From a virus (lineage: Duplodnaviria > Caudoviricetes): a stretch of DNA of 64,000 nucleotides. This document shows positions 4,449 through 34,565 of the stretch, in pieces. Position 1 is the stretch's first letter. The number at the start of each line of letters is the position of its first letter. The DNA lies in IMG/VR virus record IMGVR_UViG_3300010279_000001, positions 32,001-96,000 of that record. One strand, given 5' to 3'. The position numbers were made by a program, and so were the translations under genes. Below the pieces are notes generated by a model. That model worked only from the letters and a program-made list of their open reading frames with translations, was not told the origin of the DNA and did not search any database.

Positions 4449-4799
4449 ATGAAAGTAGAAATCACAGGTTTTGATATGAATGCGGTCCCGGAAGATATCT
4501 TAGCTAAACTTCCGGAAGATTTTGGTAACGGTGTGGTAGTGGATGCTATTCCACCAACCAAAGACATCCTGCTGCAATATGGTGTGGTAGCAGACGATGT
4601 AGATAAAGTTCTGACAATGATGGCAATCGATCGTGTTGTCGTTGTTCAAGGTCTGGAAGGTTTTGCTAACGATCCTCTGATTATCCGTGGAGATGATTAT
4701 CGTATCATCGACAACGAAGGACAAGAGTTCTACGAACCTTCTGCTGAAGATGTTCTTAATTTACTACTGGAAGCAGGCACCCAAGAGGAGGACGAATAA
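4449..4799 (+). CDS. small acidic paralogue-family protein
   Basis: MKVEI...DAIPPT...DYRIID. Confidence 0.8.
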   Translation: MKVEITGFDMNAVPEDILAKLPEDFGNGVVVDAIPPTKDILLQYGVVADDVDKVLTMMAIDRVVVVQGLEGFANDPLIIRGDDYRIIDNEGQEFYEPSAEDVLNLLLEAGTQEEDE

Positions 4800-8126: not shown

Positions 8127-8206
8127 CTCCTGAACTAAATTTCCCACCAACAGAATGACTTACCTTCCTCACGTGACTGTTTGCTTGTTTAGTGAGCAGT
8201 CATGCC

Positions 8207-8236
8207 TTGACATTTTCCCACACCTGCTGATAAAAT
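8207..8236 (+). promoter_or_regulatory. sigma70-type promoter firing into the non-coding block
   Basis: TTGACA-18-TAAAAT with extended TG; no credible ORF downstream. Confidence 0.6.
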
Positions 8237-9148
8237 GAAGGCCTTCTCTTTTCTTTTACCGAGTAATTCGGGTTTTCTGTTCTCTTCGGTTTGAAGGGGT
8301 ATGGAGATACACCTGAGTGAACAGGGTGAACAACCGAATCTTTGGCTATGGCATTAGCATGGCGAAGCGAACGGGTGACGAAAGAGGGGCCGGAGGACAC
8401 CAGTCACTGCCATATGATATATGGGTGATAACCTGAAGAGTCTGAATAAGTGTTTAAGTACCAGTCAGAGGAAAAGGTGAATGGTAGCCGAAGGGGGAGG
8501 GGGGTTTCTTGTATCTTTAATTTGTATATTATGTATACACTCGTAAACCAATATCATATGAATCTGTTTACCACACAAAGCGGATAGAGACAAATATTAC
8601 CTATTAAACTTGAATTATTTATAGAAAATACCACAACACCACTTAAGTCTTTGATTTTACACAAAAATCTCACAGATATTCACCCTCCATATTTAACATA
8701 CTTGTAACATATTCCATACTCTACCTATCTGATCAATTTACCCAACCACATCCTTCATATTTTCCCTGTCTGTACCACCCCTGCCCCGCCGGGAGTCCCG
8801 TCACATCTGGCTTTCCTGCAAATATCACATCCACAAATATCATCACCTGAAGAGGGTTTCATCCCATAATACATGCCTTACCTGAAGAGCGCTTCATACA
8901 CCACGTAATTTTTTATTGACCCGCAATTTTTCTGACACATCCCCTCTTGCCCTATAAGAGTTTCACCGGGGGTGAAATCTGCCATGCAGACCCCCTGCCC
9001 CGCCGGAGGGGTTGGCTTTTCCCACACAGACCTGAAGAGTCAGCCAGAAATATCTGAAGGGGTCCGTTCTGCCACGATTTTGACCTGACCTACAGGAGTG
9101 CTTCCCTGTCAGGAGCCTGTAGCGACTGGAGTGCTGCCAGGCGGACGA

Positions 9149-9302
9149 AATGGGAATACTTCTCATTCTTATAATGATTCTCAAATATCGAGGCTGTTTA
9201 CGCGATTGATAGCTCTGACCGTTCACATAGTGGCATGGCTTTTGCAGGATCATTGTGTGGGTGCACCTGATAATTACTCTCATTGTGATAATAGTTCTCA
9301 TT
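9149..9302. promoter_or_regulatory. four Fur-box-like sites in two pairs
   Basis: 9149 AATGGGAATACTTCTCATT, 9167, 9266 CCTGATAATTACTCTCATT, 9284 TGTGATAATAGTTCTCATT versus the 9-1-9 consensus AATGAKAATNATTMTCATT. Confidence 0.65.
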
Positions 9303-9454
9303 ACACGGCATTTAACATAATACCCATTATGCGCACCACTGGCGATCCATACAGGGATTGATAACATGAGTTACAGTTTACGCATATAACAATCATATTT
9401 CTTACTATTTGTGTGGGATATAGTTAGCAGCCGATAGATTAGATATTGACCTGT

Positions 9455-9486
9455 GGACTTCCAACCGTCTAGACGTCTAAACGCCC
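9455..9486. promoter_or_regulatory. MetJ-operator-like array of four in-phase Met boxes
   Basis: GGACTTCC AACCGTCT AGACGTCT AAACGCCC versus consensus AGACGTCT. Confidence 0.6.
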
Positions 9487-9657
9487 ACACAACAAGGATT
9501 ATACATACATTACTGAATGTAAACAGGGCCGCAAAAATGCTACCATACCAGTTTGTAAATTTTTCATGCAGCACTTGACAAAGAGGAGGAAAACTTGTCT
9601 GACACTTTAGACACAATAGTGACATAATGGTGACACTGAACATAATTGACATGCCTG

Positions 9658-9807
9658 ACTGTTTACGCTGTCATTATCCACGCTAGTAATATTCACTCGC
9701 TTACTATTCACGCTCTTACTGTTTACATGCTTAATGGTTTACATGCTTAATAGACTGCATGTCTAATAGTTTACATAGCCAACTGTTCACGCATAGATTG
9801 TTTACTC
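9658..9807. repeat. degenerate tandem array of ten 15-16 bp units, core TRTTYAC
   Basis: Units start at 9658, 9673, 9688, 9703, 9718, 9733, 9749, 9765, 9781 and 9797. Confidence 0.8.
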
Positions 9808-9892
9808 AAAAATGATAAGCCATGCCATTCGTTTGCATGATAAAGATTAGCAAGTTAATAGTCTTTCACTGGCTATGATGACATAATATAAA

Positions 9893-9973
9893 AGCAGGGC
9901 AACTATTAGCAGATCTATAGTTGCCTTGCTTGTCATGTCATGATTGATTGATTATAAGGCAACTATAGATCTG
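9893..9973. repeat. nested inverted repeats of a GGCAACTAT motif
   Basis: 9893-9906/9917-9930 14-bp IR with one mismatch; 9910-9927/9956-9973 perfect 18-bp IR. Confidence 0.8.
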
Positions 9974-10682
9974 ATTAATAGATTGCAGACAAACTATCAC
10001 GGGGGTGATGGTTACTGCTTTTATATTATGTCGCGACTCCGTCGCGCCATGCCATTCGTTTGCATAGTTGCCTTATTGTTACTGATAAAACAATTGCATT
10101 GTTAATTATTTCTTATCTTTCTCTTAGTCATCTAATGATTCCAGTTAGTATAGTAATGTACAGTAAACATTAGACGACTAAAGATTTCTCTGCTTATGAT
10201 AACTTACCGTGACAATTACAGACTGTTTACGAAAAATGTTGACACCTGAGCTGATTTATGTTATGCAGTTTGCACGAATAATTATTTTATGCAGGTATTG
10301 ACTATTCCGTTATTCTACGGTTGGAATAAATACTTAGCATGCTATAGAATGGTGACGCTACGTGAATTCTGAGATTCTGCGGCTATAGTTATACCCGATT
10401 TTTCACGTAGAGCACGCTTTTGCAGTGGTGTAAGTGTATGACTTATAAGGGTTTTTAGTTGTTGACAAGATACTGAAGATGTGCATCAGGTTAAAATTTG
10501 TGCAATAGCGGCATTACGTGCAATTTTGAGAGGAAAAACGGGTAAAAATGGCCTTGCTACCACACAATGAAAGATTATGCAATAGTTATTTTCTATGCAT
10601 ATTTGTACAGTGGGGGTAATTGCTGGCTTGTCGATTATTCCACTTGCCAGGTGGGGCCGTTTGTGGTAGTGGAAGGATAGAC

Positions 10683-10708
10683 AAAAAGAAAGGGGCCTTT
10701 AAGCCCCT
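10683..10708 (-). terminator. intrinsic terminator ending the early region
   Basis: AAGGGGC-ttaaag-GCCCCTT plus U-tract on the - strand. Confidence 0.75.
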
Positions 10709-11880: not shown

Positions 11881-11984
11881 AATATTTTCCTCTCTCCTGG
11901 TTGTTGTGTGGGCACCTTTGCCCCTTCAAAACAAATGTTACCCTACCTCCTGGCAGGTGTCAACGGTTTTTATGGTTTTTATAT

Positions 11985-12033
11985 GGCAGGCAGGCCCGGT
12001 GGTTGTCTCCCCCTGTCGCCAGGTGCCTGCCGT
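11985..12033 (-). ncRNA. putative promoter-driven hairpin RNA, copy 1 (GGGAGACAA family)
   Basis: Starts 7 nt after TG-T-TATACT; GGCAGGC/GCCTGCC stem; similar copies at 21618 and 21772. Confidence 0.5.
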
Positions 12034-12091
12034 AAAACAAGTATAACAAAAAACAGGACCATTGCAAGCCCTGTTTTATAGTTTATAAGGA

Positions 12092-21399: not shown

Positions 21400-21573
21400 T
21401 TTATTTTCCTCCCCTTGTTGGGTATCTCTTCTTCCTGATTCTTTTATACTACTCCCCAGGGCCTGGCGCAACCATTTTATAACTTTCCTCCCTGGTCCGG
21501 TCGGACATACCAGGCTGGCCCCGCCAGGCTGCAGCGGTTGGCGCACCTGGTTAGAAAATTTTTTGAAAAAGTG

Positions 21574-21665
21574 TTGACAGCGGCCCCGCCAGGTGGCATA
21601 ATGCACTCATCGAAAGGACGGCAGGCACCGGTGACGGGGGAGACAACCACCGGGGATGGGCGCTA
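21574..21665 (+). ncRNA. promoter TTGACA-17-CATAAT plus putative hairpin RNA, copy 2
   Basis: CCGGTG/CACCGG stem with loop ACGGGGGAGACAAC; no ORF. Confidence 0.5.
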
Positions 21666-21670
21666 TATAA

Positions 21671-21854
21671 AATGAGAACGGTTATCATTATCGTCTAAAA
21701 ATTTATGCGAAAAATCCTTGCTTTCTTTGTCCTGCGTGATACTATAATAACAAGCCGGGGCAACAGGGGCCGGGAGACAAACACCGGGCCTGCCCGTTAT
21801 TTAGCAAACGAGAATGATTATCATTCAAAATTCTAAATGAGAACTCCTCGCATT
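21671..21854. promoter_or_regulatory. three Fur-box-like sites
   Basis: 21671 AATGAGAACGGTTATCATT (16/18), 21807 AACGAGAATGATTATCATT (17/18), 21836 (14/18). Confidence 0.7.
21718..21800 (+). ncRNA. promoter TTGCTT-16-TACTAT plus putative hairpin RNA, copy 3
   Basis: GGGAGACAAACACCGGGCCTGCC is 22/23 identical to copy 1. Confidence 0.45.
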
Positions 21855-21896
21855 TACTAAATTTAATTAGCATGCTAATTACCTACCGTGACAATT

Positions 21897-22120
21897 CTAC
21901 ATAAAATAATACTCCATAAAATATTTCCATATAGAAATTTTGAAAATCTATTTCCGAAAACGAAAAATCGATTTCGTTCCCAAAAATTTCAGATCGATCG
22001 CCAGACCAATTTCCAGAAAATCCGATTCAGAAAACGAAAAACAGATCGAGTACTGAAAATTTATCGAGACAGATTTCTACAAAATCGGATAGCCAGAACG
22101 AAAAACAGATCGAGTACCGG
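21897..22120. repeat. phased A-tract region with a 21-bp direct repeat
   Basis: AACGAAAAACAGATCGAGTAC at 22033-22053 and 22097-22117. Confidence 0.75.
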
Positions 22121-22429
22121 GGAAGCTGTGCCGAAACTTGTCGATGGCAGTAAGCTTGTTGTGGTAAAGGTGCAAGGTTAAGCCAGATAAGCACAGGTGG
22201 AGGAGGGTATATGTACGATAGGTGCAAGAAGATGATTTAAAGGAACAGTGCTAACGAGTGGAGGATTAGGTAGGCGTGTACCTCTTGTGTGGGAAAAATC
22301 CATTTTAGTTTTCGATCCATTTTCTGATTTTCTAAGAATCTTGAAATATCTGGGCAGGTAAAATATCAAAAGGAGGAAATCCATTTTAGAAATCCTCCCG
22401 GTCTCTGGCAACCTACTAACTTAAAAATA

Positions 22430-22762
22430 TCAGGTTCCCAGTGTGTTCTTTCCTTTGTACAACCGTAAGGGTATAGTTTTTGTAACAGTCCATCTCCCCA
22501 CACCTTCCCAGTTCCAGTTGTAGGTATGGTACCCAGTTATGCATGCACTGCTAGAGTGGTCATAGGCATAAGAGAACGCTATACGCACCAAATGGAACCA
22601 GTCTTTCCACGGTTGTGGTCCGTAAGCTTTTCTCCAACACCGACACAAACTAAATGTCTCAAGAATAGGCAGGATAACAAATCCATACACAGCCACCAGA
22701 ATGGTCAACGCAATGATTGTCAGGAATACATACCCTGCAGTTGAAATGATGATCTCTGTCAT
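22430..22762 (-). CDS. membrane protein
   Basis: GGAGG RBS; N-terminal TM segment. Confidence 0.75.
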   Translation of the reverse strand: MTEIIISTAGYVFLTIIALTILVAVYGFVILPILETFSLCRCWRKAYGPQPWKDWFHLVRIAFSYAYDHSSSACITGYHTYNWNWEGVGRWTVTKTIPLRLYKGKNTLGT

Positions 22763-25328: not shown

Positions 25329-25383
25329 CGTGGTTCTCCAGGTTCAACAGGTGGTGCCACAGGAAGATCATAGAACATAATTA

Positions 25384-25740
25384 TCACTCCCCTTTCCCAT
25401 AAAGCATGGCTTCGCGACAATCGTTCCACCCTTCAGCATAGTCACTATAGGCAAGAGGCCAACCTCTTATGTATTCACGCGGCAACTTATCAGGTACTAC
25501 TAGCGCTGGCGGGGCGGTATAAAGGTCGTAGCTTCCATCAGACAATGGGTGACCTACATACTCACCGAATCCATCAATACACATTTCCCCATCTTCAACA
25601 ATGCACGATGCTACAGGCTCCGCTTCCAGCGATGCCAGAGCAATTTCATAAGCACGGCGCTCAATATCGTCTCGAATGTTCTGGCTGTCTATACGCTCTT
25701 TGAGCTCTTTAATCAGTTCTTTGTCGGTGGAAGTGCTCAT
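25384..25740 (-). CDS. lambdoid Eaa/Ea22-like protein
   Basis: IALASLEAEPVA, LYTAPPA.VVP and GWN.CR.AML motifs typical of P22/lambdoid Eaa proteins. Confidence 0.7.
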   Translation of the reverse strand: MSTSTDKELIKELKERIDSQNIRDDIERRAYEIALASLEAEPVASCIVEDGEMCIDGFGEYVGHPLSDGSYDLYTAPPALVVPDKLPREYIRGWPLAYSDYAEGWNDCREAMLYGKGE

Positions 25741-25750
25741 ATCAGCCCCC

Positions 25751-25948
25751 TTACACAGGAATTGCTTCAAACAAACCGTTATCGATACCGTCCTTAATGT
25801 AGAGATTATACTCGATATCGGTATCTGTGAAAAGGGCTGCATCTAGCATCCTGTCTGTGAGTCCATCCATCGGGTGGAGAAACCACCACCCACGCCAGTC
25901 AAAGTAACAGCCTGGTGCATCTTCTCTTACACGGATTCGATAAATCAT
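25751..25948 (-). CDS. hypothetical protein
   Basis: GGAGG RBS. Confidence 0.7.
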   Translation of the reverse strand: MIYRIRVREDAPGCYFDWRGWWFLHPMDGLTDRMLDAALFTDTDIEYNLYIKDGIDNGLFEAIPV

Positions 25949-31865: not shown

Positions 31866-32141
31866 CAATAGTTCAGGTAGGTCGTTAAGCTACCCCGCAC
31901 CATTACGTGCATAGCCATACGTTTTCACGTAGGATCGGACCATCTCACATTCCTATGGTAAGCAACCACAGGAATCCTCCCATTTCGACCGCACTTGCTG
32001 GTCTACTTCCTTTCGGAATGGCCTCTGAGCGTTCGCTCTTTTGAGCGCTTCGTTGCGGATTACCTTGCCATAAGGTTTAGGCTTCCCGCAGTTAAAGAGG
32101 TTATTCGACATAGATTACTCTATGAAGCCACAATGTTATTT
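31866..32141 (-). ncRNA. group I intron (IA2-like), 276 nt, no internal ORF
   Basis: 5' exon ends in U paired with G (CCAU/GUGG, P1); P10 CAUU/GAUG; P AACUGCGGGAA; Q AAUCCGCAAC; P7 GGCCA/UGGUC; P7.1, P7.2, P8 and P9-9.2 hairpins; terminal G; splicing restores the frame. Confidence 0.92.
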
Positions 32142-34565
32142 ATGGTAATAAATAATACGACGGACACCTTCATCGTACCACCCACGCTTCACCATTTGGT
32201 GGTGCATGAGTATCCCAACTAAGTCACACAGCGATGCACCACCATTCTGTTGGTATGCATTAAGTAAAGAGTGTTTAGATCGGGTCCAGATAGCATGACC
32301 ATCAAAAGAGTAGATAAACTTCTTACCTGTTGCTTCCCAGAATTTCTCCAGATCCTCTTTGCGCCCCTTAAGACCAGGGTTGGCATCCCAGAGTGCATCG
32401 ATTACTCTTTGTCCTAACTCTGGAGAGATGTCCAGCATATCTGCAACTTTATCTTTTTGTGCCCCATACATAACCCCATACGTGATAGGTTTACCGTCGT
32501 TACGGGACACCTCTCTGCCTGCTACTTTTGTATATGCCTCAGCATTGTTTTGGTGTGCGTCTCCGTTACTTACAACATCATAATACAAGCCGTTGTCGAA
32601 CTCAAAGGCACCCCAGGCCCCGATAAGCTGCTCTAAGTTGGACCCGTCAATACCGATCTCAAAGTATCCTGGAGGAACACCCCACAGACTACGCATCTCT
32701 TTACCCATAACCACTTTAGGGGATGGTTTAGGCATGTTTGCACAAATACTGTGTTTCTGTCTGGAAGTGTTTGTTAATCCAGAGCTTTTAGCAGGAAGCT
32801 TATGGTCAATCTTCAAACGTGGGTGATTAAGAAGACCAGTATCAACCTTATCCTCCTTGATTGGATCAAGGACCGATCTGCGGTTTCGCAATGATAACCA
32901 CAAGACGATATCTTTAGCCATCTCTCCGTTCAATTTTTCAAGATTCGGACATAGGTGTCCAAACGTATCTTTCAGTTGCGGAGAAGTAATAAGTGCCCTG
33001 GCTTTTCTACGTATTTTCCCGAACACTTCCTTTTTAATCCTTTCGGAGTTAGGAAAGCTTCGGAACTTGTGCACGGTTGTCTGGAACTTGGCATCAGTTT
33101 TGTTCCAGAAGTTGATAATCAGGTCACAATACTCTGACTCTAAAAGCTCGTCCATATATGCATATACTCGTGCATCAACATCCGCATCAGGTAGAGCTTT
33201 CTTCTTGCTATCTTTAGTTACATCTTTAGTTCTCCACATTGTCGGTAGCCAGCCAGCACTGATCAGATACCGCTTAATGTCGTCCTGATTGCTGATTTTC
33301 ATAGGTATCTTGCAGTCCGGCATTCGCTTCTGCTGTAGATCACTTATTGCCTGATCCATCAGCTCTTTAGGCAAAGGGTGGGGTGTGGAAGTGCCCTTAA
33401 TATAGCCTCTCAAGAAATCAGCCATCTTATCGGGGTCTTTGCAGCCCATCTCTTCACACCATTTTATCCCTATCTTGCTGACATCCCCTGTAGAGGTAAA
33501 TGCTCGCTTAGGCGGGGCTTTGAACTCTAAAGCGCTCATGTCTACAGGATAGCCAAGCTTATCTTTTAACCATTTCCAACCATTATTAGAGATTGTCCCG
33601 TCTTGGTTAAACGGCTTTTCAGGGAACTTGGGCCGCTGAGACATTGACAGCTCTTTTAAAGGCAGCTGTGGTTCAACACGATCAGCGATTTCTTTCATCC
33701 ACGCATCGCAACGGTCACGTAAAGCAATAGCTCCATCTATGTCGAAGTATACACCCTGACGGGCCTGCAGCTCCATCAGGAAGTGCTGCAGCATGCCTCG
33801 ACGTAGTGCGTTCTTCCAGGTGATCTTCTTGAACCCTTTCGGCTTCTCTTTGGCTGGATCGTACATAAAGTTCTGCATGTCAGATTTGCCGTAGAATACA
33901 CCTTTTGATTCCGCTACCAGCTCTTTCCAGAGCAGCTCCTGGATGATAACGTCCTCGAATACACGATCCACATACTTCCACAACGGAAGATCGCGCCAGT
34001 CATCAATTTGAACTTTCTGGTTACCAAGGGCGTAGCCCCATGCCATAAGGCCGTGAGGACCAACAGGCTGCATTTTCTTAGTAACCGGGTTGAATACAGA
34101 GTCCGGACAACCTTTTGGTAAAGGGCGATCAGGCCACAAGATTCGGCTCATCGCCAACGTATCAAACAGATTAACCTGGTGGTCGTTGATAGTCCCCATG
34201 CACTTAGGATCACGGAACATATCAAAATGAATACCGGATAATCTCTCCATCAGCATAAAGTCGTAACTGAAGCAGTTATGACAGTTCAAAGCCGTAGGTG
34301 ACCAGTCTGAGTTACCTGTAAGCCAACCTTCCAACTCTGAAAAATCTGCTATGCGAATTTCAAAATCTTTATAAAGAGTTTTCTTTGCCAGAATAAAGTT
34401 CTTAGCCTTCTCTATATCCTCTTCGGAGTAGTGTGTGCTGTCATTTAGAGGAAGGAACAACATAAAACGGTTCTTATTCAGCTCTTTAAACAAACCACAG
34501 TGATAATAAAGATCTAAGTCTTCCAAAAGCCCGGAGGCCTCCAGATCGAACGACCACATACTCAT
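32142..34565 (-). CDS. DNA polymerase (family A), exon 1
   Basis: ExoI FDLEASGL, motif A IDGSNLE, motif B R..GK.ITYGVMYG; ends YYH. Confidence 0.92.

Follow-up and report, generated by a model that had tools for sequence, protein, structure and literature searches.

Among the described systems closest to the locus analysed here are the primary origin of phage T7 and oriF and oriG of phage T4, where, as in the present phage, tandem promoters fire into an AT-rich, repeat-bearing and gene-free segment. In contrast to these origins, the locus uses host sigma-70-type promoters with boxes for a host regulator placed between them, and it has iterons, which suggest an initiator protein; its origin is also a candidate only. 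The boxes in turn resemble the chromosomal operators of fepA-fes, fepB-entC, fepD-entS and fhuA in E. coli, which have the same palindromic 7-1-7 core and belong to Fur-regulated promoters. Unlike those operators, however, the boxes belong to a virulent phage and are found outside the promoters of annotated genes, they are arranged in arrays of 2-4 at 29-bp spacing that follow an RNA hairpin after 6-7 nt, and they lie upstream of, or overlap, the -35 element of the next promoter, with Fur binding being predicted. To our knowledge, the reading of host metabolic regulators is not a trait usually ascribed to virulent phages.

The DNA under study, hereafter the window, is a 64,000-nt stretch that corresponds to bases 32001-96000 in a viral record 137,418 bp long. 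Its identity to rV5-like E. coli phages (genus Vequintavirus) is 84-94%, and judged by its sequence it is part of a 137-kb virulent rV5-like (Vequintavirus) E. coli phage. A gene-free gap of ~1 kb (21400-22430) interrupts a long minus-strand gene block that runs from 8.9 to 48.3 kb, with small early genes to the left of the gap and nucleotide and replication genes to its right. The gap contains two tandem RNA modules, U1 and U2, together with their boxes, and a third, inverted module, copy A, lies elsewhere in the window (Table 1). In the paper on the rV5 genome, a non-coding box is mentioned and a primase-helicase of podovirus type is described, and its authors were unable to map the origin. 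The published literature on the rV5-like group yielded no account of an origin, of small RNAs or of Fur boxes, and the text portion of the HIDEN-SEQ paper on Bas54 leaves non-coding regions unmentioned.

Some further features of the window were observed. A second, larger gene-free block (8130-10700) holds many other repeats and palindromes besides Fur-type boxes, and a 13-mer at 21884, adjoining promoter P3, recurs inside it. On the minus strand, a group I intron match (RF00028, 59.8 bits) is located at 31916-32151, near the 3′ end of an 809-aa ORF (32136-34565). The sequencing runs that contain DNA of the phage are exclusively wastewater libraries, probably of DNA, where it is present as contigs with fragmentary cover. 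In contigs of all four wastewater runs, 371 bp at 25378-25750 are swapped for 14 other bases, which removes most of a 152-aa ORF (25384-25842) and represents an indel polymorphism among relatives.

Table 1. Positions of the promoters, RNA modules, Fur-type boxes and repeats in the window.
Feature	Position	Strand	Details
Promoter P1	21574..21602	+	TTGACA-17-CATAAT with TG extension, 11/12; inferred start near 21609
RNA module U1	21609..21662	+	leader and hairpin, loop GGAGACAACCACC; includes the initially annotated element 21618-21654
Core motif copies	21638, 21772, 12011	+, +, -	pattern scan
Fur-type box 1	21670..21690		21-bp palindrome, centre 21680; 27.0 bits
Promoter P2	21718..21745	+	TTGCTT-16-TACTAT with TG, 7/12; inferred start near 21752
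RNA module U2	21752..21804	+	hairpin, invariant loop GGAGACAAACACC, 3′ arm CCTGCCCG
Fur-type box 2	21806..21826		centre 21816; 28.9 bits
Fur-type box 3	21835..21855		weaker, centre 21845; 20.9 bits
Promoter P3	21853..21881	+	TTTACT-17-TAATTA with TG; read by eye from sequence and alignment, absent from promoter scan output
Iterons	21929..22117		three of ~51 nt, starts 21929, 22003, 22067; AT-rich DNA
Further Fur-type boxes	9148..9303		left gene-free block, centres 9158, 9275, 9293
Terminator hairpin	12040..12077	-	loop contains the -35, T-run the extended -10 of the copy A promoter
Copy A promoter		-	TTGCAA-16-TATACT with TG, 9/12
RNA module A	11979..12033	-	inverted third copy; repeat begins at inferred transcription start 12033
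Next promoter after copy A	11935..11963	-	TTGACA-17-TAACAT, for gene 11880-11608

The putative promoter-driven RNA modules

The three modules share a 17-nt core that, with up to 2 mismatches allowed, has exactly three occurrences in the 137,418-bp genome, all of them in the window, and none in 100 shuffles; in every copy it lies 24-31 nt past a sigma-70-type -10 element. The initial annotation had described an element at 21618-21654 (+) that recurs on the minus strand, and indeed its 37 nt align with 12033-11995 with two one-base gaps and 1 mismatch. The near-identity it assigned to a third copy (21772-21794) holds towards the minus-strand copy (22/23), but not towards the copy at 21638 (only 18/23). 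The tandem unit of promoter, hairpin and box, estimated at ~140 bp, measures 134-136 bp, as given by the motif positions 21644 and 21778 and by the box centres 21680 and 21816, and each copy does lie downstream of its own extended -10 promoter, with good matches for P1 and copy A and a weaker one for P2.

Although P2 departs considerably from the consensus in this phage, its -35 TTG and its -10 are kept across genera. Promoter-like sequence in the place of P3 is clear only in some other genera and is clearest in GAP31, a Salmonella phage and an Erwinia phage. A promoter matching at least 9/12 positions is found within 95 nt upstream in 30 of 33 motif instances, compared with 15% of random windows, and the distance between the -10 and the motif ranges across these instances from 24 to 61 nt. 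Since the distance varies and a promoter is nearly always present, the element appears to belong to the 5′ end of a transcript rather than to keep a constant spacing in the DNA. The scan of the + strand of the window revealed no intrinsic terminator following U1 or U2. U1, U2 and A are supported as putative promoter-driven, ORF-less elements of RNA level.

On the minus strand, the terminator and promoter at 12040-12077 form a compact cassette that is kept across genera, and the promoter following copy A occupies the slot that is held by Fur boxes after copy A in other genera. Just upstream of the P2 -35, a direct repeat GTAAA-N5-GTAAA, which we take to be a match to the CpxR box, is conserved in other genera (L005, L008, L010, L011, L012, L014) and absent from the window (21700-21717).

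U2 is the best-conserved copy across genera, and the covariance model R1 matches it at 21744-21804 with 65.9 bits; copy A scores 19.5 bits (11979-12040) and U1 gives a partial match of 12.7 bits (21619-21662). The initial annotation had placed GAGACAA in the loop of differently built stems. The stems do differ, and the heptamer is unpaired in the MFE folds of U2 and A, but in U1 its first two bases are paired. The RNAalifold consensus of plain alignments is weak (-3.4 and -2.6 kcal/mol), and the z-scores of single-sequence folding are modest, mostly -0.5 to -3. The outer stem shows covariation: in 14 U2 sequences the score is 0.197 compared with 0.124 in shuffles, of which 1/500 reached it, and two stem pairs vary on both sides (AU/GC and CG/UA/GC), while the named structure has 77.6% of cells paired as against 31-47% for slid controls. 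For the 33 R1-aligned instances, in an alignment that leans towards the model, the corresponding scores are 0.200 and 0.123 (0/500). Since the 5′ arms pair in different registers between lineages, the sequence is evidently more conserved than the structure.

The invariant 13-nt loop consists of GGAG followed by nine CA-rich bases. The same arrangement stands directly before the ATG in eight early genes of this phage, where GGAG(A/T)AAACAYY-ATG is shared, and two of the four genomic 13-mers nearest to the loop directly precede an ATG as real initiation regions. As the initiation regions of early genes share its arrangement, the loop resembles a ribosome-binding site that lacks a start codon, and, because frames across it are by eye not conserved, it is apparently not coding. 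Complementarity of the loop to the E. coli 16S, 23S and 5S rRNAs and to three tRNAs was no better than that of shuffled loops. An anti-GcvB sponge was considered and rejected at a duplex energy of -9.7 compared with a null of -10.7 kcal/mol.

Conservation and distribution of the RNA core

The promoter-RNA-box module is conserved across Vequintavirinae and Stephanstirmvirinae in the form of two inverted loci 8-10 kb apart, and the recorded hosts of these related phages are mostly Enterobacterales. U2 and its box are 80-88% identical in Seunavirus, Mydovirus, Certrevirus, Henunavirus, Phapecoctavirus and phage FBKp34; the alignment is lost in the DNA flanking them, and a comparable gene-free gap of ~1 kb is always present. 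Copy A is similarly kept, inverted and 8-10 kb from U2, and is followed by Fur-type boxes in several genera.

The U1 slot is occupied in Seuna-, Mydo-, Certre-, Henuna- and Phapecoctavirus by a different, highly conserved and promoter-driven RNA candidate of ~95 nt (L005:1307-1412, L010:518-623 and homologues), which shows a single AU/GC compensatory pair and matches no Rfam family. Several E. coli phage records have hypothetical proteins called across the non-coding gap, and one public record, that of a Klebsiella phage (OY978796.1, L005:878-1573), annotates three tRNAs there, a reading supported neither by ARAGORN nor by the Rfam tRNA model; the "anticodon arm" of this annotation is the Fur palindrome. 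The pseudo-ToxI of the related phage phiTE was also rejected as a counterpart, both locus and sequence being different.

Outside these phages, a 19-base pattern of the motif was found at 27 metagenome loci, of which ~20 appear real in having a consensus promoter followed by the motif, and it had a single match in 185,579 prokaryote genomes. In four contigs (L141, L148, L151 and L156) an intrinsic terminator follows the motif and the neighbouring genes run on the opposite strand, with five such promoter-motif-terminator units within 6 kb in L156. Two others (L161 and L165) pair the motif with Fur-type boxes, and a distant metagenome relative (L140) has it together with iterons like those of the window. 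The 13-nt core and the 3′ arm are kept in contigs with no other detected nucleotide similarity, and because such unrelated contigs of uncultured, phage-like DNA hold multi-copy promoter-motif-terminator units, the motif looks like a discrete small RNA. The units in L156 (530-4720) have perfect-consensus promoters, lie on one strand and are interleaved with opposite-strand genes, one of which codes for a DUF932 protein; a sixth promoter, at 4629, is followed by another short unit with a hairpin RNA. DUF932 (phrog_1221) was rejected as a shared neighbour, being near three metagenome copies and absent from this genome.

The stand-alone type of unit was found in none of 50,697 phage records and in none of 72,556 plasmids. 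In scans of IMG/VR a loose pattern gave mostly chance matches and a strict pattern none. The Rfam search proposed along with the initial annotation was carried out and matched no family: Rfam 15 has no relevant match in the window region, whether the threshold is the gathering score or an E of up to 10, and none where the motif lies in relatives and in the metagenome loci. Likewise, no paper on the RNA motif was found in the literature, and the motif string occurs in no relevant paper. The RNA core is a candidate for a new RNA family, one that would lie close to promoters, occur in several copies, be all but missing from cellular genomes and have no entry in Rfam. The new elements are the conservation of the module across two subfamilies, the RNA core in unrelated metagenomic contigs, its stand-alone form and its resemblance to initiation regions, and the availability of cultured carriers (rV5 and rV5-like phages of the BASEL collection) makes the RNA core directly testable.

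Fur-type boxes and the iteron region

The initial annotation placed Fur boxes directly after both tandem copies, and the sequences agree with this. Box 1 matches the 19-bp Fur consensus at 16/19 and box 2 at 15/19 positions; for the 7-1-7 core the values are 11/14 and 12/14, and only 8/14 for box 3. The consensus of 33 boxes from this phage and 11 relatives is a 21-bp palindrome with the 7-1-7 Fur motif TGATAATnATTATCA as its core and G or T at one half-site position. When a matrix built from phage boxes only was applied to 603-652 kb of E. coli K-12 (~49,000 positions), it placed all of its top 7 matches in the intergenic regions of fepA-fes, fepB-entC and fepD-entS, and these three bidirectional ent/fep promoter regions make up ~1.5% of the scanned sequence. 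On a second 49-kb E. coli stretch the best match was at the fhuA promoter; the second-best there, with 17.5 bits, is in the map-rpsB intergenic region (L173:44581-44601). Only 4 sites of at least 20 bits are present in the 137 kb of the phage (window 9158, 21680, 21816 and 21845), all in the two gene-free blocks. The recovery of host operators by a phage-derived matrix supports the boxes as sequence-equivalent to chromosomal Fur operators and as candidate Fur sites.

With respect to the next promoter, box 1 is centred at about -72 of P2 and box 2 at about -43 of P3, while box 3, set 29 bp apart from box 2, shares sequence with the -35 of P3. The centre-to-centre distance of 29 bp, or ~2.75 helical turns, is also that of the arrays in relatives, which in L010, L006 and L014 have 3-4 boxes each; it is exact in L006:1552-1618 and L014:801-896, and the last interval is longer in L010:739-843. 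Fur-type operator arrays of high quality are kept across two phage subfamilies with recorded hosts mostly among Enterobacterales, which would mean that the iron signal of the host is sensed, or titrated, by these phages at a probable replication control region.

The iterons, spaced by 74 and 64 bp, align across genera downstream of U2, where relatives also share a further repeat class. They are direct repeats that adjoin AT-rich DNA and are kept in relatives, as in iteron origins, and P1, P2 and P3 all face them, against the gene flow. The iteron region (21929..22117) is a probable replication origin. The cumulative GC skew follows the transcription units and their direction and is uninformative on the origin.

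Proposed function and known RNA systems

The explanation we consider about equally likely to be right or wrong as a whole is that of one conserved module that produces trans-acting decoy RNAs and in which Fur gates read-through towards the likely origin. A host-type sigma-70 promoter would start a short non-coding RNA, the first ~50 nt of which are predicted to fold into an imperfect hairpin exposing the invariant 13-nt loop. The RNAs may be abundant early transcripts made by the host polymerase, and the exposed loop would act in trans as a decoy, drawing off a factor specific for GGA(G) loops that resemble initiation regions. The two tandem modules would point via P3 at the three conserved iterons, and Fur-Fe at the boxes would couple both read-through and the firing of P2 and P3 into the iteron region to the iron status of the host. 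A broader form appears improbable to us, namely that the core marks a widespread class of early phage RNAs, each with a loop that mimics an initiation region (Shine-Dalgarno and spacer, no start codon) and serves as a high-copy decoy of a host or phage factor binding or cutting such regions, and that rV5-like phages have in addition linked the RNA to host Fur operators. In this form, iron status would choose between a short decoy and read-through into an iteron origin, which would amount to an iron-gated switch of replication or take-over in a virulent phage.

A decoy small RNA was among the hypotheses of the initial annotation and gains support because the motif occurs elsewhere as stand-alone, multi-copy units of promoter, motif and terminator; action in trans is what we infer beyond that. 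In contrast, the suggestion that a Fur roadblock sets the 3′ end of the hairpin is unlikely. Each box begins 6-7 nt past the hairpin stem, and a polymerase blocked there, with its footprint taken at our estimate of the usual value, would stop before the 3′ arm is made.

The best of the alternatives, although unlikely, is that the transcripts activate or prime the origin, the tandem promoters transcribing into the AT-rich iterons and the hairpin serving as a 5′ stabiliser or an aid to R-loop formation. The aim of P1, P2 and P3 at three conserved iterons against the gene flow fits it well, as do the podovirus-like primase-helicase and the unmapped origin of rV5 and the same layout in the distant relative L140. 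However, since the motif exists without iterons, the R-loop primer that the initial annotation had also proposed fails as a general function: self-contained units without iterons reach 5 copies per 6 kb, and copy A likewise has no iterons nearby. The other instances show by eye no consistent G excess, a primer needs no invariant 13-nt loop, and the GC skew, which tracks the direction of transcription, marks no origin.

Less probable than either of these is a sponge in which loop-presented GGA motifs titrate the host CsrA, an idea of the initial annotation. Enterobacterales, which are most of the recorded hosts of the relatives, have CsrA, GGA persists in almost every loop variant, including those in which the next bases differ, and U1 has three GGA motifs within ~50 nt (counted by eye). 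By the same count, U2 and copy A have one GGA each, and both G of the U2 motif would be paired within the inner helix; what follows GGA disagrees with the CsrA consensus, the CsrB/CsrC models have no match at E up to 10, and the invariance of CAAACACC is left unexplained.

We rate lower still a cis-acting leader that modifies the transcribing polymerase in the manner of the HK022 put antitermination RNA. The motif is always within 20-60 nt of the promoter start, terminators often come after it, and copy A and L157 are upstream of same-strand genes. Nevertheless, U1, U2 and the units in L141, L148, L151 and L156 face a convergent gene, which leaves no target for read-through, and the put-type placement upstream of terminators and same-strand genes is not that of U1, U2 or most metagenome units. 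Least probable of all are relics of early-gene cassettes of promoter, 5′ hairpin and ribosome-binding site that lost their ORF, or protein-binding DNA, with no RNA function, as suggested by a loop equal to an early-gene ribosome-binding site minus its ATG, by heterogeneous stems and by weak thermodynamic signals, but opposed by the 13-nt core and 3′ arm kept in contigs otherwise without detected nucleotide similarity, by copies that multiply instead of decaying, by compensatory stem changes and by the varying promoter distance.

Returning to the decoy RNA with Fur-gated read-through, the RNA part of the module has partial counterparts among known systems. Like the CsrB/RsmZ-type sponges, it would be a strongly promoted non-coding RNA with a Shine-Dalgarno-like GGA(G) in a loop and several copies per genome, whereas it has one motif per RNA, an additional invariant CA-rich tract and no similarity to them by sequence or model. 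The put RNAs of HK022 and the nut sites of lambda are likewise situated just downstream of early promoters at two divergently oriented loci; in contrast, the phage RNA is a single predicted hairpin that mostly has no same-strand genes downstream, and its loci are 9.7 kb apart. Finally, the PeSL cassettes of T4-type phages are also repeated units of an early promoter and a stem-loop scattered in early regions, but in the phage module the stem-loop follows the promoter and would be transcribed from it, and it carries an invariant loop that is common to unrelated elements.
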